A stretch of DNA of 27,458 nt from a virus (lineage: Duplodnaviria > Heunggongvirae > Uroviricota > Caudoviricetes): positions 1 to 27,458 of the IMG/VR virus record IMGVR_UViG_2703718852_000003. The stretch is one strand, 5' to 3'. The notes under the pieces were generated by a model. That model was not told where the DNA came from. It saw only the letters and a list, made by a program, of their open reading frames with translations, and did no database searches. The position numbers and the translations under genes are program-made. Shown in pieces: positions 6,437 through 27,458 of this stretch (within the stretch, counting starts at the first letter, position 1; every line of letters begins with the position of its first letter).

Positions 6437-6450
6437 TTTAAAGGGTAATG

Positions 6451-6470: not shown

Positions 6471-6491
6471 TAATTGATGAGGAGGTAAGGG

Positions 6492-7184: not shown

Positions 7185-7204
7185 GCGTTTATTACATTTC
7201 TTTA

Positions 7205-7267
7205 TTGCGCGTTAAGCAAATCAACTTGCGCAAAATATTTGCGTGAAATAATATGCTTATCACGCAA
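7205..7267. promoter_or_regulatory. Operator/promoter region between cI and cro: TTGCGCGTTAAGCAA, palindrome TTGCGCAA, and inverted repeat TTGCGTGA-N13-TCACGCAA
   Basis: Repeated TTGCG half-sites read from the sequence in the 97-bp divergent intergenic region. Confidence 0.45.
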
Positions 7268-7281
7268 TATGTGGAGGTTAT

Positions 7282-8427: not shown

Positions 8428-8436
8428 AGGTCGGTC

Positions 8437-9378
8437 ATGAGCACTAAATTAACCGGCTATGTATGGGATGGTTGCGCTGCGTCAGGCATGAAATTATCCA
8501 GCGTGGCAATTATGGCCCGCCTGGCTGATTTCAGTAATGACGAAGGTGTGTGCTGGCCATCAATTGAAACTATTGCCCGTCAGATTGGCGCGGGGATGAG
8601 TACCGTCAGAACGGCTATCGCACGGCTGGAAGCAGAAGGCTGGTTAACGCGTAAGGCGCGTCGCCAGGGTAACCGCAATGCGTCGAATGTTTATCAGCTT
8701 AACGTTGCGAAGCTTCAGGCAGCGGCATTTTCTCAACTGTCAGATTCTGACCCGTCAAAATCTGACGCATCAAAATCTGACACGTCAAAATTTGATGCGT
8801 CGAAATCTGGCAAAAAAGCGGGTTTTCACCCGTCAGAATCTGGCGGGGATCCGTCAGTAAAATCAAAACATGATCCGTCAGATAAAAAACCTTCTCGTCC
8901 GGACGCTTCGCAACCGGACACGCAGACGGCTGAACAGGATTTTTTAACTCGCCATCCTGATGCGGTTGTATTCAGCCCTAAAAAGCGCCAGTGGGGAACG
9001 CAGGATGATTTGACCTGCGCACAGTGGCTCTGGAAAAAAATCATTGCCCTGTACGAGCAGGCCGCCGAATGTGACGGCGAGGTGGTTCGTCCCAAAGAAC
9101 CGAACTGGACAGCCTGGGCAAACGAAATTCGCCTGATGTGTGTGCAGGATGGTCGTACTCACAAACAAATCTGCGAGATGTACAGCCGCGTCAGCCGCGA
9201 TCCGTTCTGGTGCCGTAACGTGCTCAGCCCGTCGAAGCTGCGGGAAAAATGGGATGAGCTTTCCCTGCGCTTATCGCCGTCCATCAGCACATACACAGAA
9301 AAACGCGAAGACCCGTATTTCAAATCCAGTTACGACAGCGTGGACTACAGCCAGATCCCGGCAGGATTCAGGGGGTGA
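8437..9378 (+). CDS. Replication initiator protein (O-like, N-terminal winged-helix DNA-binding domain) with an internal origin-like iteron array
   Basis: N-terminus (WPSIETIARQIGAGMSTVRTAIARLEAEGWL) typical of phage replication initiators; GAGG ribosome-binding site; Ser/Asp/Lys repeat linker encoded by DNA iterons, as for lambda ori inside O. Confidence 0.7.
   Translation: MSTKLTGYVWDGCAASGMKLSSVAIMARLADFSNDEGVCWPSIETIARQIGAGMSTVRTAIARLEAEGWLTRKARRQGNRNASNVYQLNVAKLQAAAFSQLSDSDPSKSDASKSDTSKFDASKSGKKAGFHPSESGGDPSVKSKHDPSDKKPSRPDASQPDTQTAEQDFLTRHPDAVVFSPKKRQWGTQDDLTCAQWLWKKIIALYEQAAECDGEVVRPKEPNWTAWANEIRLMCVQDGRTHKQICEMYSRVSRDPFWCRNVLSPSKLREKWDELSLRLSPSISTYTEKREDPYFKSSYDSVDYSQIPAGFRG
8739..8860. 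repeat. Iteron-like direct repeats with 15-bp period (CGTCAAAATCTGAC and variants, four tandem copies plus degenerate copies), preceded by palindrome GTCAGATTCTGAC; putative origin
   Basis: Tandem copies at 8752, 8767, 8782, 8797 and further copies at about 8830 and 8852, read directly from the sequence. Confidence 0.5.
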
Positions 9379-9380
9379 GC

Positions 9381-9710
9381 ATGAGTCTTTTGAATGAAGT
9401 TCAGAAATTCATTGAAGCCCATCCGGGCTGTACTTCCGGAGACATTGCGGATGCTTTTGCAGGTTACTCACGGCAGCGCGTTCTGCAGTCAGCAAGCAAG
9501 TTACGTCAGAGTGGGCGTGTGGCTCACCGTTGTGAAGGGGATACACGCAGACATTTCCCGCGCCTGACTGAGAGAGCGCAGGAGCCGGAACCACAACCAG
9601 TTCGTGAAACCAGACCTGTGCGCAATTTCTATGTCGGCACTAACGATTCCCGGGTGATTTTGTGCCTGACTCGCCAGGCGGAAAAACTGGTCAGGGAGAT
9701 GGCGGCATGA
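9381..9710 (+). CDS. Hypothetical protein
   Basis: ATG with GGGGG ribosome-binding site, overlapping the stop of the initiator gene; stop overlaps the next start (ATGA). Confidence 0.5.
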   Translation: MSLLNEVQKFIEAHPGCTSGDIADAFAGYSRQRVLQSASKLRQSGRVAHRCEGDTRRHFPRLTERAQEPEPQPVRETRPVRNFYVGTNDSRVILCLTRQAEKLVREMAA

Positions 9711-10033
9711 CGACGTTAACTCAATGCCAGCAGCAGGTGCTGGATATGCTGATTTCTTACCAGAAAGAACGTGGCTTCCCGCCAACCAATCAGGAGGTGG
9801 CAACCATGCTGGGATACCGTTCAGTGAATGCAGCGGTGGAGCATCTTCGCGCACTGGAGAAAAAAGGCGTCATCACGATAAAGCGTGGCGTGGCCCGGGG
9901 GATCACGCTTCATACCGCAGTGAAGGACGACGACAGCGAAGCGGTCGGTATCATCCGCGCACTGCTTGCCGGTGAGGAGAACGCTAGGTTGCGTGCAGCC
10001 CACTGGTTACATGAGAGGGGCCTGAAAGTATGA
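9707..10033 (+). CDS. LexA N-terminal DNA-binding-domain homolog lacking the S24 peptidase domain
   Basis: LTQCQQQVLDMLISYQKERGFPPTNQEVATMLGYRSVNAAVEHLRALEKKGVITIKRGVARGITL aligns along its length with the LexA winged-helix domain; protein ends after about 108 aa. Confidence 0.65.
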   Translation: MTTLTQCQQQVLDMLISYQKERGFPPTNQEVATMLGYRSVNAAVEHLRALEKKGVITIKRGVARGITLHTAVKDDDSEAVGIIRALLAGEENARLRAAHWLHERGLKV

Positions 10034-10419
10034 AGTTGATCCTTCCTTTCCCGCCCAGTGTGAACACGTACTGGCGACACCCCAACAAAGGGGCATTTGC
10101 TGGTAAGAGCCTGATAAGCGAGGCGGGGCGAAAATTTCAGAGCGCGGCGTGCGCAGCAATAGTTGAGCAGTTACGTCGTCTGCCGAAACCAACGTCGGCA
10201 CCTGCTTCAGTGGAGATCGTGTTGTTTCCTCCGGATAACCGGATCCGCGATCTGGACAACTATAACAAGGCTCTGTTTGACGCCCTGACCCACGCGGGTG
10301 TGTGGGAAGACGACAGACAGGTGAAAAGAATGCTGGTGGAGTGGGGACCGGTTATCCCGAAAGGGAAGGTCGAGATCACTATCAGTAAGTATGAGAAACC
10401 GGCGGGTGCAGCCGCCTGA
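10030..10419 (+). CDS. rusA: RusA-family Holliday junction resolvase
   Basis: 129 aa; conserved acidic motif IRDLDNYNKALFDALTHAGVWEDD typical of RusA. Confidence 0.85.
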   Translation: MKLILPFPPSVNTYWRHPNKGAFAGKSLISEAGRKFQSAACAAIVEQLRRLPKPTSAPASVEIVLFPPDNRIRDLDNYNKALFDALTHAGVWEDDRQVKRMLVEWGPVIPKGKVEITISKYEKPAGAAA

Positions 10420-10438
10420 TTAAGAGGAGAAACGAAGT

Positions 10439-11248
10439 ATGAATAATCTGATGGTCATTGATGGTATTGAAGTTCATCGTGATGCTTATGGGCGTTACAG
10501 CCTGAACGATCTGCATCGCGCAGCAGTAGCATCTGGTGCAAATGCCAGAACCAAGGAGCCAGGAAAGTTTCTTTCCAGCCAACAAACTGTTGAGCTTGTT
10601 CATGAATTGACCAACACCCAGAATTTGGGTGTTGACCCGGTGAGTGTGATTCATGGGGGAAATGAACGGGGAACGTATGTCTGCAAGGAACTGGTGTATG
10701 CCTATGCAATGTGGATCAGCCCGTCATTCCATCTGAAGGTGATCCGTACTTTCGACATGGTAACCAGCGCACCGGAAAAATTATCCGGACAGGCTGCTGA
10801 CAAGATGCAGGCTGGTGTGATTCTGCTGGACTTTATGCGCCGGGAATTAAACCTGTCTAACTCTTCAGTGCTTGGTGCCTGTCAGAAACTCCAGGAGGCT
10901 GTTGGCTTACCGAATCTGGCACCGCGCTATGCCATTGATGCTCCTGCTGACGCGCCTGATGGCTCAAGCCGCCCCACGCTGTCGCTGAGTGCACTGCTGA
11001 AACAGTATGGTATCCGCCTGACGGCTAATCAGGCATATCACCAGATGGCGAAGCTGGGGATCGTTGAACAACGCGAACGATACAGCCGTACCGCGATTAA
11101 CAACATCAAAAAATTCTGGTCGCTGACAGCGAAAGGCTGCATGTTCGGCAAGAACATCACCAGTCCCGCAAATCCGCGCGAGACGCAGCCGCATTTCTTC
11201 GAATCCCGATTCCCTGAGCTGTTAAAGCTGCTCGATACCGTTCATTGA
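10439..11248 (+). CDS. KilA-N domain protein (anti-repressor-like)
   Basis: N-terminal KilA-N pattern (IDGIEVHRDAYGRYSLNDLHRAAVASG); strong AGGAG ribosome-binding site. Confidence 0.7.
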   Translation: MNNLMVIDGIEVHRDAYGRYSLNDLHRAAVASGANARTKEPGKFLSSQQTVELVHELTNTQNLGVDPVSVIHGGNERGTYVCKELVYAYAMWISPSFHLKVIRTFDMVTSAPEKLSGQAADKMQAGVILLDFMRRELNLSNSSVLGACQKLQEAVGLPNLAPRYAIDAPADAPDGSSRPTLSLSALLKQYGIRLTANQAYHQMAKLGIVEQRERYSRTAINNIKKFWSLTAKGCMFGKNITSPANPRETQPHFFESRFPELLKLLDTVH

Positions 11249-11249
11249 G

Positions 11250-12245
11250 GTGACCGTGAGAGCACTACTGACCCCTGAAATTGCCCCGCGTATGGGGATC
11301 GTATTGTTCAGGCCCGGTTCAGAGCTGATGCCCCTGTTTATGCAGGGGCGTGTCCTGCTGGAGCCTGAGCCGGAGCATTATTCATCTTTCGCCAGTGGTG
11401 CCGTTCCCGCGGCGTCACAACCGCTGGCGGATGATCCTGCCGTTTGGGCCGTGTTCCGCAATGAGGCAGTGATCCGTCGTGCTGGTGGCGTGGAATGTCT
11501 TGAAAGCTGGTTACTTCGTGAAAAAGGCTGCCAGTGGCCTCATTCCGACTGGCACAGCGAGAACATGACCACAATGCGACACGCTCCGGGTGCAATCCGT
11601 CTGTGCTGGCACTGCGATAACCAGCTGCGCGATCAGTTCACGGAACGGCTGGAATCAATGGCAACGGATAACTGTGCCCGCTGGGTGTTGTCTGTTGTGC
11701 GTCGGGATCTCGGTTTTGATGACAGTCACGTTGTGACAATGCCGGAACTGTGCTGGTGGCTGATTCGTAATGACCTGGCGGATGCCTTACCGGAAAGTGC
11801 AGCCCGTAAGGCACTGAGATTACCGAAGCCTGTTGTGCCGTCTGTCACCCGGGAAAGTGACCTTGTGCCTTCGGTTCCTGCTACCAGCATCATCCAGGAT
11901 AAGGCGAAAAAGGTGCTGGCGCTGAAAGTGGATCCGGAGTCGCCGGAGTCTTTTATGTTACGCCCAAAACGTCGCCGCTGGGTTAATGAAAAGTACACGC
12001 GCTGGGTTAAGACACAGCCGTGTGCATGTTGTGGAAAGCCTGCTGATGATCCCCACCACCTGATAGGTCACGGTCAGGGTGGAATGGGTACAAAAGCGCA
12101 TGACCTCTTTGTGTTGCCTTTGTGCAGAAAGCATCACGACGAGCTGCATGCAGATACCGTGGCATTTGAAGAGATGTATGGCTCCCAGCTGGAGCTGATA
12201 TTTCGTTTTATCGATCGTGCGCTGGCAATTGGCGTGCTGGCCTGA
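11250..12245 (+). CDS. DUF968-like protein with C-terminal Cys/His (HNH-like) motif
   Basis: C-terminal PCACCGKPADDPHHLIGHGQGGMGTKAHDLFVLPLCRKHHDELH; exact start uncertain (GTG at 11250 or 11256). Confidence 0.55.
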   Translation: MTVRALLTPEIAPRMGIVLFRPGSELMPLFMQGRVLLEPEPEHYSSFASGAVPAASQPLADDPAVWAVFRNEAVIRRAGGVECLESWLLREKGCQWPHSDWHSENMTTMRHAPGAIRLCWHCDNQLRDQFTERLESMATDNCARWVLSVVRRDLGFDDSHVVTMPELCWWLIRNDLADALPESAARKALRLPKPVVPSVTRESDLVPSVPATSIIQDKAKKVLALKVDPESPESFMLRPKRRRWVNEKYTRWVKTQPCACCGKPADDPHHLIGHGQGGMGTKAHDLFVLPLCRKHHDELHADTVAFEEMYGSQLELIFRFIDRALAIGVLA

Positions 12246-12262
12246 TTTTGTGGAGAAAGTTG

Positions 12263-12616
12263 ATGCGTGATATGTATGAAGTTTTGGACCGCTGGGGGGC
12301 ATGGGCTGCTGCAGAAAACAGTGGTGTGGACTGGCAACCGGTAGCTGCTGGCTTCAAGCGGCTTTTACCTCATGGCAGAAAGTCCCGGATTCAGTGCGAT
12401 GATGATGAGGGCATCATAATAGACGGTTGTGTCGCTAGGTTGCGTAAATACAAGCCGGCAGAGTATGAGCTGATAATTGCTCACTTTGTTGTTGGCATTT
12501 CGCTCCGTACAATTGCAAAGAAGCGGAAATGTTCAGACGGAACAGTTCGAAAAGATATGCAAACAGCTATGGGGTTTATTGATGGATGCTTGTCATTTTT
12601 TTATTTAATACAATGA
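12263..12616 (+). CDS. Q: Late antiterminator Q (phage 21/82-type)
   Basis: MRDMYEVLDRWGAWAAAENSGVDWQPVAAGFKRLLP ... matches the remembered Q-type N-terminus; start at the ATG with GGAG ribosome-binding site; lies upstream of the lysis cassette. Confidence 0.75.
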   Translation: MRDMYEVLDRWGAWAAAENSGVDWQPVAAGFKRLLPHGRKSRIQCDDDEGIIIDGCVARLRKYKPAEYELIIAHFVVGISLRTIAKKRKCSDGTVRKDMQTAMGFIDGCLSFFYLIQ

Positions 12617-12639
12617 GTTAAGTGCTATGTAAAATCATT

Positions 12640-12670
12640 CTACTTTCCCAACTTTTATGTGTATATAATA
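12640..12670 (+). promoter_or_regulatory. Promoter-like element (TATAAT at 12664-12669) just downstream of Q; candidate late promoter PR'
   Basis: Good -10 hexamer, weak -35; position equivalent to PR' in lambdoid phages. Weak evidence. Confidence 0.25.
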
Positions 12671-12695
12671 CCAGGGTAAAGTAACGGAGAATCTT

Positions 12696-13736
12696 GTGAA
12701 CATTCAAGCAGTAGACATTTTTTGTGGCGCAGGGGGCTTAACTTTTGGGCTAAAAAAAGCCGGGATTGAAGTTTCTCATGGCATTGATATTGATGAGTCC
12801 TGCCGTTTCGCTATTGAGAGCAATAATCCCTTAACGAAGTTCATTAACCAGTCAGTTACTGAACTGCAATCCAGCGATGTGTCTGCTATGTTCAAGGAAG
12901 GAAATATTAGATTACTTGCAGGCTGTGCCCCTTGCCAACCGTTTTCCAAGTATCGTAATCCAAATAGCAGAAAAGATGATACAAAGTGGCGTCTTTTATC
13001 TGAGTTTCAGAGGATTGTAAGTGATGTCATGCCAGAGCTTGTGACTATGGAAAATGTTCCTCAACTTAGAAATCATAAGGTTTTTGAAGAGTTTGTTAGT
13101 GTATTAAAGACTCTTGGGTATCATCTGTGGTACGACGTTGTAAAATGTTCCGAGTATGGCTTGCCTCAAAATAGACGTAGATTAATTCTAATTGGGTCCA
13201 TATTGGGGCCAATCAGCCTTGATCAAAAAAAAGTAAGCCGTAAAGTTACAGTAAAGGATGCTATTGGTCAGTTGCCAAAAATAGGTGCAGGGGAGAAACT
13301 CGAAAGTGATCCATTGCATCGTTCGCCTAAATTAAGGGATATTAACCTTAAACGAATCTTGCACTCTTTACCAGGTGGTACGTGGGATGATTGGCCTGAA
13401 GAAATTAGAGCGGATTGCCATAAAAAGCATTCAGGTGCTACCTATAAAAGTGTTTATGGACGGATGGTTTGGGACGATACTAGTCCTACAATAACTACCC
13501 AATGTTATGGATATGGTAATGGGCGATTCGGACATCCTGAGCAAAATAGAGCAATAACTTTGCGTGAAGCTGCTATTTTACAATCTTTTCCTATGGATTA
13601 TAAATTTATTGGAAAAAATACGCCTTTTTCATTCCAAAAGTTAGGAACGATGATTGGTAATGCTGTTCCCCCTATAATTGGCCAAGTAATAGGGAGAACG
13701 TTTGTTAGGCATGTTGAGGGGATAAATATCCGTTAG
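12696..13736 (+). CDS. DNA (cytosine-5)-methyltransferase
   Basis: Motif I FCGAGG, motif IV catalytic PCQPFS, motif VI ENV, motif VIII QNRRR; GTG start with GGAGA ribosome-binding site; AT-rich. Confidence 0.9.
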   Translation: MNIQAVDIFCGAGGLTFGLKKAGIEVSHGIDIDESCRFAIESNNPLTKFINQSVTELQSSDVSAMFKEGNIRLLAGCAPCQPFSKYRNPNSRKDDTKWRLLSEFQRIVSDVMPELVTMENVPQLRNHKVFEEFVSVLKTLGYHLWYDVVKCSEYGLPQNRRRLILIGSILGPISLDQKKVSRKVTVKDAIGQLPKIGAGEKLESDPLHRSPKLRDINLKRILHSLPGGTWDDWPEEIRADCHKKHSGATYKSVYGRMVWDDTSPTITTQCYGYGNGRFGHPEQNRAITLREAAILQSFPMDYKFIGKNTPFSFQKLGTMIGNAVPPIIGQVIGRTFVRHVEGINIR

Positions 13737-14394
13737 AGATAATATAATCTTCAGTTGAGTTTATTAATAAACGAAGATATAGATCAACTCTCTCTGCTCT
13801 AGACTTAACTTCTTCTAAGGGGTCAATTTGCCCCTTTTTAGAGAAGCTAGTACTTCCATGCGCGAGTTCGTTTCTGATATCCTTAAGCAAGTCTAAGTCA
13901 ATACCATTTCTACATTCAGGTGAGTTTGCGATAGTTATTCCGTAAGCCTGCGTTATTTTGTGTAATACAGGCTTGCAAACATTACCATTGAATTCTTTAC
14001 GAATATTCAATGAGGCTGAAATTATTCTTTTGGAAATGTCAGTGCCTATCTTTTTATAAAGGGATTGCCCTGTTTCATTATCTGAAACAATTCTATGTAA
14101 TATATTTACTTGAAGCTTCTCCCTGAGTGATGCGTAATTCACCTCATTATCTTGTAAATGATCATAAATTGACTCGATGCAACCTCTGGCAGTATTTTCA
14201 ACTTGATTATATAGCATCATATGAACGGATGATTTTAAAATATTTACCCTTAGGATATTAGATTCTATTTCATCTTGATGCGCTTGCGGATCTAACTGCT
14301 GAGTATGAATCTCTATAGATGATGCAAGAGAAAGCAGTTCCATAATGTCTCTTGCTCTTTCTTCATATTCATCTCGTAAATCAATTAGACTCAT
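13705..14394 (-). CDS. HEPN-like protein (R-x4-HG motif), second gene of the DUF262 operon
   Basis: C-terminal IRNELAHG fits the HEPN R-x4-6-H motif; start 3 nt after the DUF262 stop; 3' end overlaps the convergent methyltransferase by 32 bp. Family assignment by eye only. Confidence 0.5.
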   Translation of the reverse strand: MSLIDLRDEYEERARDIMELLSLASSIEIHTQQLDPQAHQDEIESNILRVNILKSSVHMMLYNQVENTARGCIESIYDHLQDNEVNYASLREKLQVNILHRIVSDNETGQSLYKKIGTDISKRIISASLNIRKEFNGNVCKPVLHKITQAYGITIANSPECRNGIDLDLLKDIRNELAHGSTSFSKKGQIDPLEEVKSRAERVDLYLRLLINSTEDYIISNGYLSPQHA

Positions 14395-14396
14395 TT

Positions 14397-15557
14397 TTAA
14401 ATCCCTAACAACTTATTTTTAACGTAAAAGATTCTGTTTTTTAGCTGGCTGGTATTGTTTGCACTATCAGCAGTAACAAGTGTTTCAAATTCCTCTTCAA
14501 ATAGCCATTCACCTACAGGTACGGCTGGACTCTGGAGTTGTGGGTTAGTTTTTAATGCAAGTGCAGTTCCCACGGCAATGGCTTCGTATCTGGCTCGTGG
14601 GGTGGTTTTACTTGTTGCGGTCTTTTTAAAGCCAATAGGGAAATGGGTAGCAACAAAAGCAAGCATCATTTCAAAATCATGTTTAAAATTATCAACATCT
14701 TGTTGAGTAGTCACAGCTGCTGCTTGTTCATTTAAATAATTATCAATAAAGGGACGGACAAATCCCTTATAGTTTTCTAAATCATTTAAATATGCAAAAA
14801 ATCTCAAAACTAACTCACGATGATCGCCATTCGACCGTTTCCGGTCTGATAATGGAGCTAGTTGGGAAAAAAGTGAGTTTGTTGAGCATGGGGTCACAAC
14901 ATCTTTATAGAACATTGAGGTAGCAGCATCTGAGCCATGCCTCACTTCCATCGCTTCTAATCTTTTAACACCTGAGTTGATCCTTTCAAATAAATCTCTT
15001 CTATGTTGTTCCTCAACATCACCTTTCAACTCAATAAATCTTAGTGAAGCTCTTAAAAATCTTCTTTGGCGGCTAGCTAAAAGATCTGAAAATTTGAAAC
15101 CTTCTAAACTTTTAAGCTCTTTCAAATCCTTTAACTCAAATTGATCGTTCCAAAAATAATAAATAGAGCGTATCCGTTGTGAACCATCAATGATTTCTAC
15201 CCTACCATCTAATTCAGGGTCTTCATTAAATACATCAGCAATGTAAAGGTAAGGTATTGGAAAGTCTAATAGAATACTTTCTATAAAGCGAGAGGCTGTT
15301 TTTGTATCCCACTTGTAATCACGTTGATAATCTGGAATAAAAAGCTCGTTTTTGTCATTTTCAATATTATCACCATACTTTTGAATAATGACTTCAACGG
15401 TCCACTCACGTACATTGTATCCAATGTTTCTCTGAGCGAGTCTGATTTCATTGTCAGCGGAAGCGGTTAAAGCTGCAATTTCAGCCTTTTTTCTGTTCTT
15501 AGCGTGTTCATCTTGTATCTGAGCAAGCTCTTCTTTGAGTTCTTTGAGTGTAGTCAT
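14397..15557 (-). CDS. DUF262 (GmrS / ParB-like NTPase) domain protein
   Basis: Hallmark motifs FIPDYQRDYKWD and EIIDGSQR (DGQQR box); AAGGAA ribosome-binding site; AT-rich. Confidence 0.8.
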   Translation of the reverse strand: MTTLKELKEELAQIQDEHAKNRKKAEIAALTASADNEIRLAQRNIGYNVREWTVEVIIQKYGDNIENDKNELFIPDYQRDYKWDTKTASRFIESILLDFPIPYLYIADVFNEDPELDGRVEIIDGSQRIRSIYYFWNDQFELKDLKELKSLEGFKFSDLLASRQRRFLRASLRFIELKGDVEEQHRRDLFERINSGVKRLEAMEVRHGSDAATSMFYKDVVTPCSTNSLFSQLAPLSDRKRSNGDHRELVLRFFAYLNDLENYKGFVRPFIDNYLNEQAAAVTTQQDVDNFKHDFEMMLAFVATHFPIGFKKTATSKTTPRARYEAIAVGTALALKTNPQLQSPAVPVGEWLFEEEFETLVTADSANNTSQLKNRIFYVKNKLLGI

Positions 15558-15657
15558 GTTTTCGTTCCTTTAATTGAAAGTTGATTGTAAGAAAACTATA
15601 ACGCGTACGCAAAAAGTATTGTATTGTGTTAAGAGTGGTTACTTCGCCACACAACTT

Positions 15658-15682
15658 AAACCCGCCGTCGAGCGGGTTTTTT
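15658..15682 (+). terminator. Rho-independent terminator-like hairpin
   Basis: AAACCCGC-CGTCGA-GCGGGTTT followed by TTTTTTG on the plus strand. Confidence 0.5.
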
Positions 15683-15804
15683 GTACCTGTAAACCTGGTG
15701 CAGTACGGTAAACACGCTGGTGGTCGTGAATACTGACTTTTTATCTTGCTGGCTTTTTAGACAAGAGTTATTGGTATGTCATGTTAACCAGAAGGAAAAA
15801 AGAC

Positions 15805-15999
15805 ATGCTAAAACAGCAAGATATGACAGAAACGGCGAAAGTTGTTTTTAATGAATTAAGCATCGAACCGGCAACAGTCGGGGAGATTGCACAAAACACA
15901 TATCTTTCACGCGAACGCTGTCAGTTAATACTGACCCAGTTGGTTATGGCGGGGCTGGCAGATTACCAGTTCGGCTGTTACAGACGCCTTCAGCAATGA
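15805..15999 (+). CDS. Small hypothetical protein, possible winged-helix regulator
   Basis: ATG with GAAGGA ribosome-binding site; helix-turn-helix-like segment ATVGEIAQNTYLSRERCQLILTQL; divergent from the DUF262 operon. Confidence 0.4.
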   Translation: MLKQQDMTETAKVVFNELSIEPATVGEIAQNTYLSRERCQLILTQLVMAGLADYQFGCYRRLQQ

Positions 16000-16148
16000 A
16001 GGACTTTTAATTTGTGAAAATGGGCGGCTGGTGGGTGTTGGTAGCACCTGCCAGCCATTCGCTCATGCTTACTGGTCACAAGCGAACCACGGCCCACTGC
16101 TTTAGCGCAAAAGCAGAGTGAGCCTACCAGAGTTACGCTTACTGATCC

Positions 16149-17201
16149 ATGAAAAATACTGTAAAAATAAACAGTGTTGATTTAATCAACGCTGATTGCC
16201 TGCATTTTATTCAGTCCCTGCCTGATGATTCCATTGACCTGATTGTTACCGATCCGCCTTACTTCAAGGTGAAACCCAACGGTTGGGACAATCAGTGGAA
16301 AGGGGACGAAGATTACCTTAAGTGGCTGGACCACTGTCTGGCCCAGTTCTGGCGGGTGTTGAAACCTGCCGGAAGCCTTTACCTGTTCTGTGGGCATCGC
16401 CTGGCATCTGATATTGAGATCATGATGCGTGAACGTTTCAACGTGCTTAACCATATCATCTGGGCGAAGCCGTCCGGACGTTGGAATGGGTGTAATAAAG
16501 AAAGTCTGCGCGCATATTTTCCTGCCACAGAGCGCGTTCTGTTTGCTGAACATTACCAGGGGCCATATCGCGGCAAAAGTGACGGCTATGCGGCAAAAGA
16601 AAGGGAACTCAAACAGCACATAATGGCACCGCTGATATCGTATTTCAGGGATGCTCGTGCCGAACTGGGTATAACGGCAAAACAAATTGCCGAAGCCACA
16701 GGTAAGAAAAATATGGTTTCCCACTGGTTTGGTGCCAGTCAGTGGCAGTTGCCGAATGAGGCTGACTATCGGAAGTTACAGGCACTGTTTTCCCGTATAG
16801 CGGCAGAGAAGTTTCAGGAACAACAACTGGAACAACCACACCACCAGCTGGTGGCATCTTATGATTCACTGAATCGCAAATATTCTGAATTGCTGGATGA
16901 GTTTAAATCTCTCCGGCGCTATTTCTCCGTATCAGTCTCCGTGCCTTATACCGATGTCTGGATGCATAAACCCGTTCAGTTCTACCCGGGTAAACATCCG
17001 TGTGAGAAACCGGCGGATATGCTCAGGCAAATAATCAATGCCAGTAGTCGACCTGGTGATCTGGTTGCTGATTTTTTTATGGGATCCGGTTCCACAATAA
17101 AAGCAGCAATGGCGCTGGGGCGTCGGGCCTTAGGTGTTGAGCTTGAGTCAGAGCGGTTTAACCAGACAGTGAAAGAGATAAACGAGCTGGTGGGGAAATA
17201 A
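16149..17201 (+). CDS. DNA amino-methyltransferase (N6-adenine or N4-cytosine, beta class)
   Basis: Motif IV DPPY near the N-terminus and motif I FFMGSGST near the C-terminus. Confidence 0.8.
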
Positions 17202-17268
17202 TCTGGTGGCCACGTCAGGTGGCCTTTTTATTTCCATTACACAGCACCCGCATCTGCGAGGTGGGGTT

Positions 17269-17484
17269 ATGAAATCCATGGATAAGTTAACAACGGGTGT
17301 CGCCTATGGCACCTCAGCAGGTAGTGCCGGGTACTGGTTTTTACAGTTGCTCGATAAAGTCACGCCCTCACAGTGGGCGGCAATAGGTGTGCTGGGTAGT
17401 CTGGTATTTGGCCTGCTGACGTACCTGACAAACCTTTATTTCAAGATTAAAGAAGATAAGCGCAAGGCTGCGAGAGGTGAATAA
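17269..17484 (+). CDS. S: Pinholin, phage 21 S21-type, with dual-start motif
   Basis: [26 protein letters not shown] ... two transmembrane segments, charged C-terminus; matches the remembered S21 sequence; the ORF-track start at 17206 is an unsupported extension. Confidence 0.85.
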
Positions 17485-17981
17485 TGCCTCCATCATTACG
17501 AAAAGCAGTTGCTGCTGCTATTGGTGGCGGAGCAATTGCTATAGCATCAGTGTTAATCACTGGCCCAAGTGGTGACGATGGCCTGGAAGGTGTCAGCTAC
17601 ATACCATACAAAGATATCGTTGGCGTATGGACTGTATGTCACGGACACACCGGAAAAGACATCATGCTCGGTAAAACGTATACCGAAGCAGAATGCAAAG
17701 CCCTCCTGAATAAAGACCTTGCCACGGTTGCCAGACAAATTAACCCGTACATCAAAGTCGATATACCGGAAACAACGCGCGGCGCTCTGTACTCGTTCGT
17801 CTACAACGTGGGTGCTGGCAATTTCAGAACATCGACGCTTCTTCGCAAAATAAACCAGGGCGATATCAAAGGCGCATGTGACCAGCTACGTCGCTGGATA
17901 TACGCTGGCGGTAAGCAATGGAAAGGCCTGATGACTCGTCGTGAGATTGAGCGTGAAGTCTGTTTGTGGGGGCAACAATGA
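17484..17981 (+). CDS. R: SAR endolysin (signal-anchor-release lysozyme, R21-type)
   Basis: N-terminal Gly/Ala-rich SAR domain [20 protein letters not shown] followed by lysozyme catalytic region; start overlaps the holin stop. Confidence 0.9.
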
Positions 17982-18445
17982 GCAGAGTAACCGCGATTAT
18001 CTCCGCTCTGGTTATCTGCATCATCGTCTGCCTGTCGTGGGCGGTCAATCATTACCGTGATAACGCCATCGCCTACAAAGAACAGCGAGATAAAAAAGTC
18101 AGAGAGCTGAAGCAGGCGACCGCCACCATTACTGACATGCAGCAGCGCCAGCGTTCTGCTGATGCACTCGATGCTAAATACACGAAGGAGTTAGCTGATG
18201 CGAAAGCTGAAAATGATGCTCTTCGGCGCAAGCTTGATAATGGTGGTCGGGTGTTCGTCAAAGGAAAATGCCCTGTGCCATCCTCAGCCGAAACCTCCAG
18301 CGCCTCCGGCATGGGCAATGATGCCACCGTCGAACTCTCTCCAGTTGCTGGACGAAACGTTCTCGGTATCCGGGACGGAATTATCCGCGACCAAACAGCA
18401 CTGAGAACGCTTCAGGAATACATCAGGACGCAATGCCTTCGATGA
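17978..18445 (+). CDS. Rz: Rz i-spanin
   Basis: N-terminal transmembrane segment, coiled-coil-rich periplasmic domain; start overlaps the endolysin stop (ATGA). Confidence 0.75.
18198..18404 (+). CDS. Rz1: Rz1 o-spanin (lipoprotein embedded in the +1 frame of Rz)
   Basis: Signal peptide with lipobox (LIMVVGC), Pro-rich mature region, GAAGGAG ribosome-binding site; entirely within Rz. Confidence 0.7.
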
Positions 18446-18715
18446 TAGCGATAATTTTACTCATCATCCTTCACATCTGGCTCTGTAGACAGGATGGTGA
18501 TCACTTCTGGAGTGAATCCAGATTAAACATCTCATTGCTGATGCTTGAGGTTAAACATCTGGCGCGCGGTAAGGGGCTGCGTTGAGATAAGAGCCAGTTC
18601 ATTACAAAGCCTATCTACGGATGGGCTTGATAATGGTTTGTTAACCTCGCTTATCACGAACGGCATTACCGCAGGCATTCACTGAGTGCCTGCGATAATA
18701 CTTTTGATAGTCAGA

Positions 18716-18907
18716 TTACAGGATAAAAATTAGATCGAAGTAATAACCTCCTTCCATTGTGATTTTTCCTTCACGGTATAACTCGCAAAGAGAATCGAAA
18801 GTTTCTTCATGATTATCGTTCTCAGGGAACCATGCTGGCTGGAAAGCAACTTTTCCTTTTTCATTCATTACTTTTAACATATAAGGGATAATATCTTGTT
18901 TTTTCAT
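18716..18907 (-). CDS. Small hypothetical protein (AT-rich, opposite strand, in the position of lambda bor)
   Basis: 63 aa ORF with AAGAGG ribosome-binding site; no family recognised. Confidence 0.4.
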   Translation of the reverse strand: MKKQDIIPYMLKVMNEKGKVAFQPAWFPENDNHEETFDSLCELYREGKITMEGGYYFDLIFIL

Positions 18908-19104
18908 AAAAAAACCTCTTATTTTGATTGAAAAGTTTTACGCGGCATTTAGAGTACTTGAAGTCACTTCTCATCTTTAACGTCCTCCGCAAATACATCG
19001 AAAATAATATTCACTTTGTGATTTGTAGTTACCTTGGAAAGGTACATAACTAACGAGAATTACTCTCATCATTGACGGGTCCTCCCGGTGGGGTGGCCTG
19101 CCAC

Positions 19105-19187
19105 GGGGCGGGAGCGTCGCGGAAAAAGGCTAGTTTTTGAAATTTTATTCGTCATCACCACCACTGTAATTGATTGATATTACAGTG
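19105..19187. promoter_or_regulatory. Putative cos region: GGGGCGGGAGCGTCGCGG resembling lambda cosN, then AT-rich segment and a 9-bp perfect inverted repeat CACTGTAAT-N8-ATTACAGTG
   Basis: Resemblance to remembered lambda cos (GGGCGGCGACCTCGCGGGTTTT...) and location between the lysis genes and the small terminase gene. Confidence 0.3.
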
Positions 19188-19291
19188 ATTTTATTTTTAT
19201 GGTGTCGATTCTGATTGTTTTTTGTTCATCACTAACACCGTTTGCCTAAAGTTGTTCGCAAGATGCATGTTTAAAACATTCTGGAGCGGGT

Positions 19292-19621
19292 ATGGATCGA
19301 GAGTTAAAAAATCTGACGCTGAATATCAGTCAACTGGCGGCATTGTCAGGTGTACATCGCCAGACTGCTGCGGCAAGGCTGCAAAATCTACCCGTTGCAG
19401 GGGGGCATGAAAGCAACCTCAAGCTTTATCGGGTGGTTGATATTGTGTCGGCATTTCTGGCATTACCACCGCCGGTTGCAGAAGGCGAAATGGACGCGCA
19501 TGAGCGCAAAGCCTGGTATCAGTCTGAACGTGAGCGTCTTAAGTTTGAACAGGAAACGGCACAACTCATTCCGGCCAGTGATGTCAGACGGGAGTTTGCC
19601 ATCTGGGCAAAATCCGGATGA
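19292..19621 (+). pseudogene. Terminase small subunit (Nu1-like), truncated or frame-disrupted
   Basis: N-terminal helix-turn-helix (LNISQLAALSGVHRQTAAARLQNL); ORF stops at 109 aa; a charged tail continues in another frame to 19769; no large terminase or portal gene follows. Confidence 0.55.
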
Positions 19622-19782
19622 TGTCAAACGTCGGCGCAAGGCCGAAATTGATGAAAACCGCAAGCTGGATCTGGTATTTGATACCGATCCGGCCAGTGAT
19701 AAAGGAGGCAGCAGTGCCGCAACGAAACGACAGGAGCCGCAGCACACCGACGACCAGTCCGAAGAATAATTCCTGGTTCAGG

Positions 19783-21945
19783 ATGCAGGCTGGTCACCAG
19801 AGTGACGCGGATATTTATATTTATGACGAGATTGGTTTCTGGGGTGTTACAGCGAAGCAGTTTATCAGTGATCTGAATGCACTGGGCGATATCACCCACA
19901 TTAATCTCCATATTAATTCACCGGGTGGCGATGTCTTTGAAGGCATCGCCATTTTTAATGCGCTGAAAACACATGGTGCGTCCATTACCGTTTATGTCGA
20001 CGGTGTGGCGGCGTCAATGGCGTCGGTCATTGCGATGGTGGGAAACCCGGTCATTATGCCGGAAAACACCTTCATGATGATTCATAAACCATTTGGCTTT
20101 ACGGGCGGTGATGCGGAGGACATGCGCACCTATGCCGACCTGCTCGATAAAGTTGAGGCGGTTCTGTTACCCGCTTATGCACAGAAAACCGGGAAAACCA
20201 CCGATGAAATTGCTGCCATGCTGGCGGATGAGACCTGGATGTCCGGTGCCGAATGTCTGGCACATGGATTTGCTGATCAGGTAACGCCAGCCGTTAAGGC
20301 AATGGCATGTATTCAGTCAAAACGTACAGAGGAATTTAAAAAGATGCCGGAATCCATTCGAAACATGATTACTCCGCCACGCAACAGTGCTCCACGCGTA
20401 CAGGATAATGAACCTGAAGCCTCCCGGACGCCAGTGCAGGCAGCAGCACCCGTGGTGGATGAAAACAGCATCCGTGCGCAGGTACTGGCAGAGCAAAAAG
20501 CGCGTGTAAACGGTATTAATGATCTGTTTGCCATGTTTGGCGGGCGTTATCAGACGCTGCAGGCTCAGTGTCTTGCCGATCCTGAATGTTCGCTGGAGCA
20601 GGCCCGCGAAAAGCTGTTGAACGAGATGGGGCGCGAGTCCACGCCATCCAATAAAAATACCCCGGCTCATATTTATGCCGGTAACGGTAATTTTGTGGGG
20701 GACGGGATCCGCCAGGCGCTGATGGCGCGTGCCGGATTTGAAAAAACCGAACGTGATAATGTCTACAACGGGATGACCCTGCGTGAATATGCCCGTATGT
20801 CACTGACTGAACGGGGTATTGGGGTTTCCAGTTATAACCCGATGCAGATGGTCGGTGCGGCGTTCACACACAGTACGTCTGACTTCGGTAATATTCTGCT
20901 GGATGTTGCGAACAAAGCCATTCTGCAGGGCTGGGAAGATGCCCCTGAAACCTATGAACAGTGGACGCGGAAAGGTCAGTTGTCTGATTTTAAAATTGCC
21001 CATCGTGTGGGTATGGGGGGCTTCAGTGCTCTGCGTCAGGTGCGTGAAGGGGCGGAATATAAATACGTCACCACCGGAGATAAACAGGCCACTATTGCAC
21101 TGGCGACCTATGGCGAGCTGTTCAGTATCACCCGTCAGGCCATTATCAATGATGATCTGAATATGCTGACCGATGTCCCGATGAAACTGGGCCGTGCGGC
21201 GAAATCCACTATTGCCGATCTGGTTTATGCCATTCTGACGTCTAACCCGAAAATCTCCACAGATAATGTAAGTCTGTTCGATAAAGCGAAACATGCAAAC
21301 GTACTGGAGAGCGCTGCAATGGACGTGGCACCGGGCATGGCACGCATCTGCCTTTACGGGGATTTACAACGATTTGGCCGCCGCATCGACCTTCGAGTGA
21401 AAACGGGGTCCGAAGCCATCCGGGCGCTGGCCATGCAGAACCCGGCGTTTCGTCAGAAACTGAGTGACGGCTGGTACCAGGTACGCATTGCCGGGCGTGA
21501 TGCAGGTGAAACCGAATTGTCTGCCCGTCTTAATGAGCCGCTGGCAAATGGTGCCGTGATCCACATCGTGCCGCGTCTGGCGGGAGCTAAAAGTGGAGGT
21601 GTGTTTCAGGTGGTGCTGGGGGCGGCGCTGATTGCGGTGGCATGGTGGAACCCTGTGGGCTGGCTGGGTGCCGCGGCTGTATCGGGCATGTATGCGGCAG
21701 GGGCCAGTATGATCCTGGGCGGAGTGGCGCAGATGCTGGCACCGAAAGCCAGGACGCCCACGGCAGCAAGTACAGATAACGGCAAACAGAACACCTATTT
21801 CTCCTCACTGGATAACATGGTTGCCCAGGGCAATGTTCTGCCGGTTCTGTACGGTGAAATGCGCGTGGGGTCTCGCGTGGTTTCTCAGGAGATCAGCACG
21901 GCAGACGAAGGGGACGGTGGTCAGGTTGTGGTGATTGGTCGCTGA
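19783..21945 (+). CDS. Chimeric ORF: ClpP-like prohead protease plus HK97-type major capsid protein (C-terminally truncated) fused in frame to a lambda gpI-like tail assembly protein
   Basis: Protease core HINSPGGDVFEGIAIFNALK ... ASMASVIAMVG; capsid-like middle; from about 21336 MARICLYGDLQRFGRRIDL ... NTYFSSLDNMVAQGNVLPVLYGEMRVGSRVVSQEISTADEGDGGQVVVIGR matches remembered lambda gpI. Confidence 0.65.
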   Translation: MQAGHQSDADIYIYDEIGFWGVTAKQFISDLNALGDITHINLHINSPGGDVFEGIAIFNALKTHGASITVYVDGVAASMASVIAMVGNPVIMPENTFMMIHKPFGFTGGDAEDMRTYADLLDKVEAVLLPAYAQKTGKTTDEIAAMLADETWMSGAECLAHGFADQVTPAVKAMACIQSKRTEEFKKMPESIRNMITPPRNSAPRVQDNEPEASRTPVQAAAPVVDENSIRAQVLAEQKARVNGINDLFAMFGGRYQTLQAQCLADPECSLEQAREKLLNEMGRESTPSNKNTPAHIYAGNGNFVGDGIRQALMARAGFEKTERDNVYNGMTLREYARMSLTERGIGVSSYNPMQMVGAAFTHSTSDFGNILLDVANKAILQGWEDAPETYEQWTRKGQLSDFKIAHRVGMGGFSALRQVREGAEYKYVTTGDKQATIALATYGELFSITRQAIINDDLNMLTDVPMKLGRAAKSTIADLVYAILTSNPKISTDNVSLFDKAKHANVLESAAMDVAPGMARICLYGDLQRFGRRIDLRVKTGSEAIRALAMQNPAFRQKLSDGWYQVRIAGRDAGETELSARLNEPLANGAVIHIVPRLAGAKSGGVFQVVLGAALIAVAWWNPVGWLGAAAVSGMYAAGASMILGGVAQMLAPKARTPTAASTDNGKQNTYFSSLDNMVAQGNVLPVLYGEMRVGSRVVSQEISTADEGDGGQVVVIGR

Positions 21946-21963
21946 TGCAAAATGTTTTATGTG

Positions 21964-21990
21964 AAACCGCCTGCGGGCGGTTTTGTCATT
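21964..21990 (+). terminator. Terminator-like hairpin between the gpI-like region and J
   Basis: AACCGCC-TGCG-GGCGGTT stem-loop followed by a T-rich run. Confidence 0.35.
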
Positions 21991-22005
21991 TATGGAGCGT
22001 GAGGA

Positions 22006-23877
22006 ATGGGTAAAGGCAGCAGTAAGGGGCATACCCCGCGCGAAGCGAAGGACAACCTGAAGTCCACGCAGCTGCTGAGTGTGATCGATGCCATCAGCGA
22101 AGGGCCGGTTGAAGGTCCGGTGGATGGATTAAAAAGCGTGCTGCTGAACAGTACGCCGGTGCTGGACAGTGATGGGAATACCAACATCGCCGGTGTCACG
22201 GTGGTGTTCCGGGCCGGTGAGCAGGAGCAGACTCCGCCGGAGGGATTTGAATCCTCCGGCTCCGAGACGGTGTTGGGTACGGAAGTGAAATACGACACGC
22301 CGATCACCCGGACCATCACGTCGGCAAACATTGACCGTCTGCGTTTTACTTTCGGCGTGCAGGCACTGGTGGAAACCACCTCAAAGGGGGACAGGAATCC
22401 ATCGGAAGTCCGCCTGCTGGTTCAGATACAACGTAACGGTGGCTGGGTGACGGAAAAAGACATCACCATTAAGGGTAAAACCACTTCACAGTATCTGGCC
22501 TCGGTGGTGGTGGATAACCTGCCGCCGCGCCCGTTTAATATCCGGATGCGCAGGATGACGCCGGACAGCACCACAGACCAGCTGCAGAACAAAACGCTCT
22601 GGTCGTCATACACCGAAATTATCGATGTGAAACAGTGCTACCCGAACACGGCACTGGTCGGCGTGCAGGTGGACTCGGAGCAGTTCGGCAGCCAGCAGGT
22701 GAGCCGTAATTATCATCTGCGCGGGCGTATTCTGCAGGTGCCGTCGAATTATAACCCGCAGACGCGGCAATACAGCGGTATCTGGGACGGAACGTTTAAA
22801 CCGGCATACAGCAACAACCCGGCCTGGTGTCTGTGGGATATGCTGACCCATCCGCGCTACGGCATGGGGAAACGTCTTGGTGCGGTGGATGTGGATAAAT
22901 GGGCGCTGTATCTTATCGGCCAGTACTGCGACCAGTCAGTGCCGGACGGCTTTGGCGGCACGGAGCCGCGCATCACCTGTAATGCCTGGCTGACCACACA
23001 GCGTAAGGCGTGGGATGTGCTCAGCGATTTCTGCTCGGCGATGCGCTGTATGCCGGTATGGAACGGGCAGACGCTGACGTTCGTGCAGGACCGACCGTCG
23101 GATAAGGTGTGGACCTATAACCGCAGTAATGTGGTGATGCCGGATGATGGCGCGCCGTTCCGCTACAGTTTCAGCGCCCTGAAAGACCGCCATAATGCCG
23201 TTGAGGTGAACTGGATTGACCCGGATAACGGCTGGGAGACGGCGACAGAGCTTGTGGAGGACACGCAGGCCATTCTCCGTTACGGTCGTAACGTCACGAA
23301 GATGGATGCCTTTGGCTGTACCAGCCGGGGGCAGGCACACCGCGCCGGGCTGTGGCTGATTAAAACGGAGCTGCTGGAGACGCAGACCGTGGACTTCAGC
23401 GTGGGTGCCGAAGGGCTTCGCCATGTACCGGGCGATGTCATTGAAATCTGCGATGATGACTATGCCGGTATCAGCACCGGCGGGCGCGTGCTGGCGGTGA
23501 ACAGCCAGACCCGGACGCTGACGCTCGACCGTGAAATCACGCTGCCATCTTCCGGTACCACGCTGATAAGCCTGGTTGACGGGCAGGGGAGTCCGGTCAG
23601 CGTGGAGGTCCAGTCCGTCACCGACGGCGTGAAGGTGAAAGTGAGCCGTGTTCCTGACGGCGTTGCCGGATACAGCGTATGGGGGCTGAAGCTGCCGACG
23701 CTGCGCCAGCGCCTGTTCCGCTGCGTGAGTATCCGTGAGAACGATGACGGCACGTATGCCATCACCGCCGTGCAGCATGTAACTACGGCTCCCCTTACGG
23801 AAACATTGACTTTATCGAGATCTCGGCGCGCGGTCTGCCTTCTTTGCTTAGTGCGGATAATGTTTCTCGTCATCTGA
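22006..23877 (+). pseudogene. J: Tail tip host-specificity protein J, N-terminal roughly 590 aa only
   Basis: Near-identity to remembered lambda J from MGKGSSKGHTPREAKDNLKSTQLL through ITAVQHV, then unrelated sequence and a stop after about 30 codons; full J is about 1130 aa. Confidence 0.8.
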
Positions 23878-27035: not shown

Positions 27036-27458
27036 TTATCGTTGTAAGAGTGATTTAATATTGTTGGCGACTACTTCAGGATTATTATCATAGACCATAT
27101 AATACTTATCACTAAGTAAAGGTAATGATAGGTTTACGACCTCCTCGTCTTCTTTTTTTAATAAGGTCAAAAGTTTTACGTCGCCACTCGATATTTCGCT
27201 GGCTAAAACTGCCCTTAATTCTTTTTGAGGCCATTCCTTATTGACTGAATTAGCAGATAAAATAGCGATGACATATTTTGATTTAACTAGTGCTGCATTT
27301 ATTTTCTCAATTAAGGAGTCGCCCCATTTTATCTCAACATGATCTATGAAGGCTGAAATTTTAAGTTTAGTTAACTCGTCATATATTGGAATTGCAATGC
27401 CTTTTTTGTCTTCGCTTGCATGGCATATAAAAACATCAAAGTTTTCTGTTTCTTTCAT
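27036..27458 (-). CDS. TIR-domain protein (standalone, about 140 aa)
   Basis: N-terminal FDVFICHASEDK and conserved SANSVNKEWPQKEL block (S-x-x-S-x-W-x-x-E-L with putative catalytic Glu); AT-rich; start codon at the window edge, so upstream context is not visible. Confidence 0.75.
   Translation of the reverse strand: MKETENFDVFICHASEDKKGIAIPIYDELTKLKISAFIDHVEIKWGDSLIEKINAALVKSKYVIAILSANSVNKEWPQKELRAVLASEISSGDVKLLTLLKKEDEEVVNLSLPLLSDKYYMVYDNNPEVVANNIKSLLQR

Follow-up and report, generated by a model that had tools for sequence, protein, structure and literature searches.

A lambda-like cos site in a lambdoid prophage that has lost its large terminase gene

The window analysed here is a stretch of 27,458 nucleotides of viral DNA (Caudoviricetes; positions 1 to 27,458 of IMG/VR record IMGVR_UViG_2703718852_000003). 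It raises the question of whether a segment upstream of a small terminase gene (terS) is a cos packaging site, and what such a site means in an element without a gene for the large terminase subunit (terL). An initial annotation of positions 19105-19187 had proposed a cos-like site retained despite the loss of terL, by which a helper phage might package the element and mobilise its defence genes.

The site is an ordinary lambda-like cos, and the prophage group it belongs to is known and abundant. Comparison with related sequences suggests, with a probability of roughly 0.87, that positions 19077-19232 form the cos of a lambdoid prophage of the mEp460/cdtI/Fels-1 type, intact but orphaned as a packaging substrate. 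The head module of this type consists of a DUF1441 small terminase, a large terminase resembling lambda gpA and a fusion of a ClpP protease with the capsid protein.

The cos site and its probable cohesive end

The 18-mer, the A/T-rich tract and the 9-bp repeat named in the initial annotation all lie upstream of terS at the positions it gave. Together with the cosQ and cosN elements, the following features were found:

19077-19083, plus strand: cosQ heptamer GGGTCCT, identical to lambda, 22 bp before the nick (23 bp in lambda)
19104-19119, no strand assigned: cosN, CG-GGGCGGGAGCGT-CG, placed by the ends of the Tritos and cdtI records and by the lambda register
19105-19122: 18-mer GGGGCGGGAGCGTCGCGG
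19123-19149, no strand assigned: A/T-rich tract AAAAAGGCTAGTTTTTGAAATTTTATT (A5...T5), directly 3' of the 18-mer, the spacer between cosN and cosB
19162-19170 and 19179-19187: arms of a perfect 9+9 inverted repeat, CACTGTAAT-N8-ATTACAGTG, with an 8-nt loop
19292: ATG of terS, 3' of the flagged stretch

The layout in the window reads ...GACGGGTCCTCCCGGTGGGGTGGCCTGCCACG / GGGCGGGAGCGT / CGCGGAAAAAGGCTAGTTTTTGAAATTTTATTCGTCATCACCAC-CACTGTAAT-TGATTGAT-ATTACAGTG-ATTTTATTTTT..., where the slashes enclose the presumed overhang. In lambda, cosQ is the packaging-termination signal, and the counterpart of the heptamer in the window is numbered 48473-48479 there.

The 18-mer is identical to lambda GGGGCGGCGACCTCGCGG at 14 of 18 positions, the best such match anywhere in the window, but since shuffled windows contain a mean of 0.23 matches of this quality the resemblance of the 18-mer alone is not beyond chance. 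The window has a single instance of cosQ GGGTCCT together with GGGGCGG at lambda-like spacing, and 100 shuffles have none. A 12-mer search allowing mismatches found no second cos in the window. The alignment with lambda suggested as a check in the initial annotation puts the window in exact lambda register: in the window as in the joined lambda ends, the 12-nt overhang position has ACG before it and CGCGG after it. The A/T-rich spacer aligns with lambda GCTATTTATGAAAATTT and sits where lambda has its I2 or bent-DNA spacer. Similarity to a known cos site is thus present; four overhang positions differ from lambda, and the cosQ-cosN spacing is 1 bp shorter.

From this register the 12-nt 5' cohesive end would be 19106-19117, with the sequence GGGCGGGAGCGT, and the nicks would fall after 19105 on the top strand and opposite 19117/19118 on the bottom strand. 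The overhang matches lambda GGGCGGCGACCT at 8 of 12 positions and differs at 7, 8, 9 and 11, all in the right half; it matches that of Gifsy-1, GGGCGGCAGCGT, at 11 of 12, with position 7 alone different. Such differences in the right half are common among lambda-like cohesive ends while cosQ is highly conserved, and Gifsy-1 itself differs at positions 8, 9 and 11 (PMC4669245). The ends of Gifsy-1, N15 and mEp213 likewise confine their variation to positions 7-12 and conserve cosQ (PMC4669245, PMC9026076, PMC12315714). A hand count of two-fold symmetry on 19104-19119 gives four pairs (8 of 16 bp), against five pairs, or 10 of 16 bp, in the 16-bp cosN of lambda (PMC9026076). A literature search for the overhang sequence returned a single, unrelated paper.

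Two phage genome records have their ends at the predicted nick. A search of 50,697 phage records showed that the opening bases of Tritos (OV696610), GGGCGGGAGCGTCGCGGAAAAAGGCTAGTTTTT, are 100% identical to window 19106-19138, and the cdtI record (AB285204) has the same first 33 bases. Both end in ...GGGTCCT(C/T)CCGGTGGGG..CCTGCCACG, and the last base matches 19105. Base 1 of these records may have been set by analogy with lambda; experimentally mapped virion ends for this cos type were not found in the literature, and the Tritos paper gives no termini. The mEp460_4F5 record lacks 3 bp inside cosN, which may be an assembly artefact. For Ayreon, the authors assigned TerL to the cos group by phylogeny and, a cos being no more than "expected" upstream, opened the genome at terS.

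Positions 19040-19300 are 100% identical to the cos of an Escherichia coli prophage (NZ_CP085074) in which terS, terL, the adaptor and the portal are annotated as complete and terL directly follows terS. As in lambda, the site lies between the lysis and terminase genes: the lysis cassette ends at 18445 and the truncated terS begins at 19292. The terS ATG is at bp 187 from the left end and that of lambda nu1 at bp 191, so that both start about 190 bp into the genome. An exact 37-bp core is present in at least 119 IMG/VR viral contigs; the 37-mer spans the cut site, and the figure is therefore a measure of abundance in which contigs that end at cos are invisible.

Conservation among close relatives follows the same boundaries. 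Eighty IMG/VR loci with a TerS 100% identical to the full-length form yielded 70 distinct upstream sequences, or 71 with the window. Left of 19075 these are mutually unrelated, and near-invariance starts abruptly at cosQ and continues rightwards. cosQ is at least 98% conserved, as is the A/T-rich spacer except at 19146. The overhang is nearly invariant, with T at position 12 in 60 sequences and G in 11. Variable columns are restricted to the cosQ-cosN spacer, 19146, 19162, 19171-19172, 19187-19188 and a few others. The cos identity put forward in the initial annotation is thereby borne out by cosQ, cosN and cosB together, by the Tritos and cdtI record ends and by the identity with an intact prophage.

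Candidate cosB sites and the inverted repeat

Right of the spacer, the window resembles the published "complex cosB", in which R3, I1, R2 and R1 follow each other with R2 inverted (PMC4669245, PMC9026076). The corresponding candidate sites for TerS and for integration host factor (IHF) are the following:

19152-19158 (bp 47-53 from the left end), plus strand: candidate R3, TCATCAC, from column co-variation in 180 relatives
19167-19179, minus strand: candidate I1, TATCAATCAATTA, an exact match to the IHF consensus WATCAANNNNTTR, at the centre of the inverted repeat
19202-19208 (bp 97-103), minus strand: candidate R2, TCGACAC, inverted relative to R3 and R1, from column homology
19226-19232 (bp 121-127), plus strand: candidate R1, TCATCAC, from column co-variation

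Order, orientation and approximate positions agree with those of lambda, where R3 is at bp 50-65 (PMC9026076). The motifs themselves are unrelated, being of the CGTTTCC type in lambda and of the TCATCAC type in the window, and the lambda TerS belongs to the Nu1 family whereas that of the window is a DUF1441 protein.

The R sites were assigned by comparison between TerS classes. The TerS scans were extended with VT1-Sakai, 606R10 and Fels-1, giving 180 distinct upstream regions that were grouped by the helix-turn-helix of TerS. The columns of R3, R2 and R1 switch between CAC and CAT together, and they do so with the helix-turn-helix class. CAC is paired with V or A before HRQT in the TerS helix and CAT with L. 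By class, with R2 given as the reverse complement, the heptamers are:

Window class (..SGVHRQTAAARL): R3 TCATCAC, R2 TCGACAC, R1 TCATCAC
1720a-02 class: R3 CCATCAC, R2 TCGACAC, R1 TCATCAC
606R10 class: R3 CCACCAT, R2 TCGACAT, R1 TCGACAT
VT1-Sakai class: R3 TCATCAT, R2 TCATCAT, R1 TCGACAT
Fels-1 class: R3 TCATCAT, R2 CCATCAT, R1 TCATCAT

In Fels-1 and VT1-Sakai, an unsupervised repeat search found a plus/minus/plus triple near bp 45, 96 and 120, and the same search recovered R3, R2 and R1 of lambda as a control. With 8-mers and one mismatch it missed the triple in the class to which the window belongs. R2 of that class agrees with the R3/R1 heptamer at 5 of 7 positions and is assigned because its columns are homologous to those of classes in which the repeat is clear. 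The heptamers are short and were noticed post hoc, and they are best regarded as candidates. Searched against PDB sequences, a TerS profile reached an E value of only about 0.3, and a structure prediction of the truncated TerS alone (pLDDT 50) was unusable.

Phages cdtI and Tritos share cosQ and the sequence from the nick to bp 33 with the window, and they differ in cosB and in the N-terminal domain of TerS. The cdtI TerL is 88% identical to that of the undeleted relative NZ_CP085074, while its TerS is 42% identical, with the divergence mostly in the N-terminal helix-turn-helix, and the cdtI DNA departs from the window from bp 34 onwards, where cosB starts. Lambda and phage 21 offer a parallel: they agree in cosQ and cosN, yet their cosB and TerS specificity differ (PMC4669245).

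The inverted repeat noted in the initial annotation is predicted to mark the I1 (IHF) position of cosB and not a TerS site. There are three exact matches to the IHF consensus in the window, one of them between R3 and R2, and the variable loop columns 19171-19172 coincide with the NNNN of the consensus. The YAA-N4-TTGWT core is kept at the same place in 142 of the 180 relatives, across TerS classes, and an IHF-like core can be read directly at bp 64-76 of Tritos. On the minus strand the T-run at 19188-19198 reads as an A-tract that precedes the IHF core by 8 nt, an arrangement also found at the attP H' site. The repeat arms are kept in the window's TerS class only, and there only over the inner 8 bp (71 sequences); the repeat is absent from the other classes. 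The arms were also considered as TerS half-sites. This was rejected because they lie inside the expected IHF footprint with an unconserved outer pair, and because the classes without the repeat keep R3, R2 and R1 as well as the IHF core.

The repeat and the T-run could instead be an RNA element on the late transcript, either an intrinsic terminator or a stabilising hairpin before terS, but this is unlikely. A terminator scan does flag 19162-19187 plus ATTTTATTTT, and the fold has a free energy of -13.3 kcal/mol with a z-score of -2.8. However, the stem is AT-rich, with GC pairs at 3 of 9 positions. Covariation is divided. In the 71 relatives the pair 19162:19187 is T:G in 38, C:G in 13 and T:A in 13, and G:T or T:G wobbles at three further positions keep the pairing; against this, 19164:19185 is C:T in 6 and 19166:19183 is T:C in 4 and A:C in 3, so that pair-breaking lineages are about as many as pair-keeping ones. 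The other TerS classes have no hairpin but do keep the IHF-like core, and the T-run can be read as the opposite-strand A-tract of an IHF site resembling attP H'. An RNA hairpin and an IHF site could also coexist.

The deleted prophage and its prospects of packaging

The window holds a lambdoid prophage, integrated at the yjjG/prfC locus, with these genes:

386-1609: integrase
2715-2909: excisionase
6492-7184: cI-type repressor (S24 peptidase domain), followed by cro and cII
8437-9378: O-like initiator, followed by RusA
12248-12616: Q
12696-17201: C5 methylase, HEPN and DUF262 pair, and N6/N4 methylase, in this order
13705-15557, minus strand: defence-type cargo within this region, a HEPN_MAE_28990 protein and a DUF262/GmrSD_N (NsnA-like) protein, left of cos
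17206-18445, plus strand: lysis cassette of holin, lysozyme and Rz, directly upstream of cos as in lambda
19292-19621, plus strand: truncated terS (DUF1441/phrog_141), from Pfam and PHROG matches and alignment to a 164-aa TerS
19618-21945, plus strand: ClpP-protease/major-capsid fusion gene, with Pfam CLP_protease, Phage_capsid_4 and Lambda_tail_I in one open reading frame

The true start of the fusion gene is probably at 19714; at 21329/21330 the reading frame continues into the C-terminus of tail protein I. Remnants of head and tail genes, J and a fibre gene among them, lie right of the truncated terS, and an RT-TIR gene is at the right edge.

Positions 6151-23781 are 99.95-100% identical to the prophage of E. 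coli P21_SE1_04.20 (NZ_CP085074) except for three deletions, which BLAST shows to be clean with 2-3 bp of microhomology:

19611/19612: deletion 1, 3,834 bp with 2-bp microhomology, removing terS codons 108-164, terL, the adaptor and most of the portal gene
21329/21330: deletion 2, 8,359 bp, from the 3' end of the capsid gene through the tail genes into I
23779-23781: deletion 3, 3,603 bp, removing the 3' end of J, lom and the N-terminus of the tail fibre

The loss of the large terminase claimed in the initial annotation is thus explained by deletion 1, whose 3,834 bp are still present in the otherwise identical prophage. The same deletion has truncated terS, which had been taken as retained. 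The remaining protein has 107 native residues, including the N-terminal helix-turn-helix, followed by Ser-Gly-stop, and lacks the C-terminal 57 residues. All 107 native residues are identical to the full phage protein (98% identity over 109 aa).

How the site would work can be modelled on lambda. The N-terminal helix-turn-helix of TerS would bind R3 (forward), R2 (inverted) and R1 (forward), and IHF would bend the DNA at I1, inside the inverted repeat. TerL would then introduce staggered nicks 12 bp apart at cosN, leaving GGGCGGGAGCGT as the 5' overhang; packaging would proceed rightwards, towards terS, and terminate at the next cos by means of cosQ and cosN. Since the C-terminal domain of TerS, TerL, the adaptor and the portal are lost, the site could be used only with a terminase supplied in trans, and this would have to come from a phage of the same TerS specificity class. 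Protein binding, the nick positions and packaging in trans are all projected from lambda and its relatives.

The wording "retained despite" in the initial annotation suggested selection for the cos site, and the comparison with complete genomes speaks against this. The junction of deletion 1 was found in none of 5,426 complete E. coli genomes, and a 32-mer across it had no match in a species-representative genome set. A unique junction between near-identical flanks indicates that the deletion is recent and that cos has not been maintained by selection. Retention of cos is simply the leftover of a recent deletion that starts 320 bp inside terS.

Packaging of the element by a helper phage is nevertheless plausible, by analogy, because there is a precedent in the prophages Sp4 and Sp14 and because this cos type is common. 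Sp4 of E. coli O157 Sakai has a disrupted nu1 and was found packaged, "most likely" by the terminase of Sp14, since the two cos sites are identical (PMC2669165). The cos query was covered to at least 80% in 1,470 of the 5,426 complete E. coli genomes, about a quarter, and about 1,000 records reached an identity of at least 95%.

Efficient mobilisation of the defence genes, on the other hand, is probably not to be expected. Lambda-like packaging runs from cosN through cosB, that is rightwards (PMC4669245, PMC9026076). The DUF262/HEPN pair and the methylases are left of cos and would therefore be packaged only after excision and concatemer formation; the RT-TIR gene alone among the cargo lies right of cos, in the direction of packaging. 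Length is a second obstacle. The window measures 27.5 kb where the NZ_CP085074 reference spans 44.2 kb, and by this measure the complete element comes to about 29 kb, some 64% of the roughly 46 kb of the undeleted relative, so that a dimer would be about 127%. In lambda, packaging efficiency holds steady only when the DNA measures 80-105% of genome length; with shorter genomes, particles are fewer and in part non-infectious (PMC2771126). Helpers of the Tritos/cdtI type share cosN but probably not the cosB specificity and would probably not recognise the element.

These data also bear on a more far-reaching proposal, namely that the element is a functioning hitch-hiker whose cos is under selection and which spreads defence genes by means of its relatives, a satellite in the making. 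We consider this very unlikely. The intact cos, the compatible cos sites common in E. coli, the Sp4/Sp14 precedent, the RT-TIR gene downstream of cos and the presence of integrase, excisionase, cI-type repressor, O-like initiator, Q and lysis genes would all suit such an element. However, the deletion junction is absent from both genome sets, and flanks 99.95-100% identical to those of the undeleted prophage leave no time for selection. Monomer and dimer both fall outside the 80-105% range of lambda, and the DUF262/HEPN pair and the methylases are upstream of cos. There is also no Rpp-like redirecting gene and no capsid-size gene; the gene that follows cos is the truncated terS.

It is highly improbable that the orphan cos and the truncated TerS act together as an anti-phage device against relatives, a packaging interference born of the deletion. 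What is left of the protein comprises the DNA-binding helix-turn-helix and a portion of the central helix but no C-terminal domain, and it might poison the terminase of an invading phage by forming mixed oligomers or by occupying cosB. Alternatively, the terminase of the invader might cut the chromosomal cos, resulting in a chromosome break and an aborted infection.

A chance G+C-rich motif without any role in packaging is effectively refuted by the comparative data: the expected frequency of the 14/18 match would allow it, but not cosQ at the right spacing (0 of 100 shuffles), two phage records with ends at exactly 19105/19106, a fitting location between the lysis genes and terS, strong conservation against unrelated left flanks and an exact 37-bp core in so many viral contigs.

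Relation to known systems

An orphaned cos of the mEp460/cdtI/Fels-1 type can be compared with several known systems. Gifsy-1 has an overhang that differs at one position but a Nu1/phage-21-type TerS and lambda-like head genes, where the window has the Fels-1/cdtI/mEp460 module; a placement of Gifsy-1 in the TerS family of the window was considered and rejected on the basis of its annotation.

One parallel is Sp4 of O157:H7 Sakai, a lambdoid prophage without a working terminase whose cos is identical to that of a relative and which was found in DNase-resistant particles (Asadulghani et al. 2009, PMC2669165). Sp4 has Sp14, whereas no co-resident helper is known for the element described here, the host having been read over the 27-kb window alone. 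Sp4 has lost nu1 only, through an IS insertion, and is reportedly near full length, whereas the deletions in the present element took terL, the portal and most of the head and tail genes and left it at about 64% of unit length.

The cos-type phage-inducible chromosomal islands (PICIs) such as EcCICFT073 share cosQ and cosN with the window; like it they are chromosomal, lack a terminase of their own and need a lambda-like helper (Fillol-Salom 2019, PMC6739421; Murialdo and Feiss 2022, PMC9026076). They differ in having no phage-type cosB and in carrying Rpp beside cos, which retargets the TerS of the helper, while the window has an ordinary phage cosB and a truncated terS. PICIs are defined as small islands with no structural or lysis genes, and the window contains a holin, a lysozyme, Rz, remnants of the capsid, tail I, J and fibre genes and a full lambdoid early region. 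The element is not a PICI.

Packaging could also start from the chromosome. Packaging in situ from a prophage cos was reportedly described by Sternberg and Weisberg in 1975 for the "doc" particles of lambda. On this model the terminase of a helper would cut at the chromosomal cos, from which the right arm and the adjacent host DNA would be packaged in one direction, and a second cos would be needed to terminate the process.

That a defective prophage without terminase can be packaged by way of a shared cos is an idea already published (PMC2669165). What is modestly new here is an explicit set of cos coordinates and proposed R heptamers for phages with a DUF1441 TerS, both of which were deduced by comparing sequences. 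An intact cos in a prophage without terminase is by itself no proof of a mobile element or of mobile defence genes, because mobility also hinges on the direction of packaging, the spacing between cos sites and the specificity of the helper. In practical terms the gain is small: the analysis fixes the coordinates of cos and a probable cohesive end, GGGCGGGAGCGT, for a group of E. coli prophages that is very common; mEp460 and Ayreon are among the deposited genomes that were opened at terS, cos not having been located. The proposed TerS heptamers could in turn explain which of these prophages package each other's DNA.

Deletions and replication genes

Apart from three clean deletions, the prophage is 99.95-100% identical to its undeleted relative in E. 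coli P21_SE1_04.20. Each deletion has 2-3 bp of microhomology at its junction:

19611/19612, deletion 1, 3,834 bp
21329/21330, deletion 2, 8,359 bp
23779-23781, deletion 3, 3,603 bp

Through the 8,359-bp deletion, the C-terminus of tail protein I has become an in-frame extension of the ClpP/capsid ORF. The junction at 19611/19612 was found in none of 5,426 complete E. coli genomes.

Behind the O-like initiator, the stretch 9375-10033 holds a 111-aa ORF of a 'transcriptional activator' family and a gene for a protein with a LexA DNA-binding domain, and no P/DnaC-type loader is found there. Because such a loader is missing at this position and the reference annotation lists the counterpart gene as a pseudogene, both the element and its relative may lack autonomous replication.

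Defence genes and small ORFs

A defence-type island is located between Q and the lysis genes, and the prophage carries a further defence gene at its right end:

12696-17201, island with a C5 cytosine methylase, a HEPN_MAE_28990 protein, a DUF262/GmrSD_N protein and an N6/N4 methylase
27036-27458, minus strand, C-terminal TIR domain belonging to an RT-TIR (class XII) anti-phage reverse transcriptase, cut by the window end

The top PADLOC match of the DUF262/GmrSD_N protein is NsnA; the same search gave no match for its HEPN partner. RT-TIR is the sole defence gene downstream of cos in the direction of packaging.

Two small conserved ORFs, annotated without function, lie between Rz and cos:

18716-18907, minus strand, phrog_20657
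18433-18585, phrog_11822

The reference prophage and 606R10 have both of them too, and PhiR40_1 has small ORFs at the matching positions.

The packaging module and TerS specificity

An abrupt mosaic boundary is seen at 19074/19075. Left of it, several unrelated sequences occur among relatives whose TerS is 100% identical, but from cosQ rightwards these relatives are nearly the same, so cosQ marks where the exchangeable packaging module has its left edge.

The three R heptamers (19152-19158, 19202-19208 and 19226-19232) and the homologous columns in the loci of relatives were compared with TerS. Across five TerS classes the final base of all three heptamers, C or T, follows the residue preceding HRQT in a helix at about residues 20-30 (V or A versus L). 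As a candidate recognition code, this pairing would determine packaging specificity.

Variation in the cohesive ends

The record of phage mEp460_4F5 (LR595868.1) lacks 3 bp (TCG) within cosN that all other relatives have, and it starts 5 bp left of the inferred nick; misassembly at the cohesive ends may explain this. Of 71 relatives with identical TerS, 60 carry T and 11 carry G at position 12 of the overhang (19117). Mixed infections of the T and G variants would yield cohesive ends with a one-base mismatch, resembling the situation described for lambda and N15.
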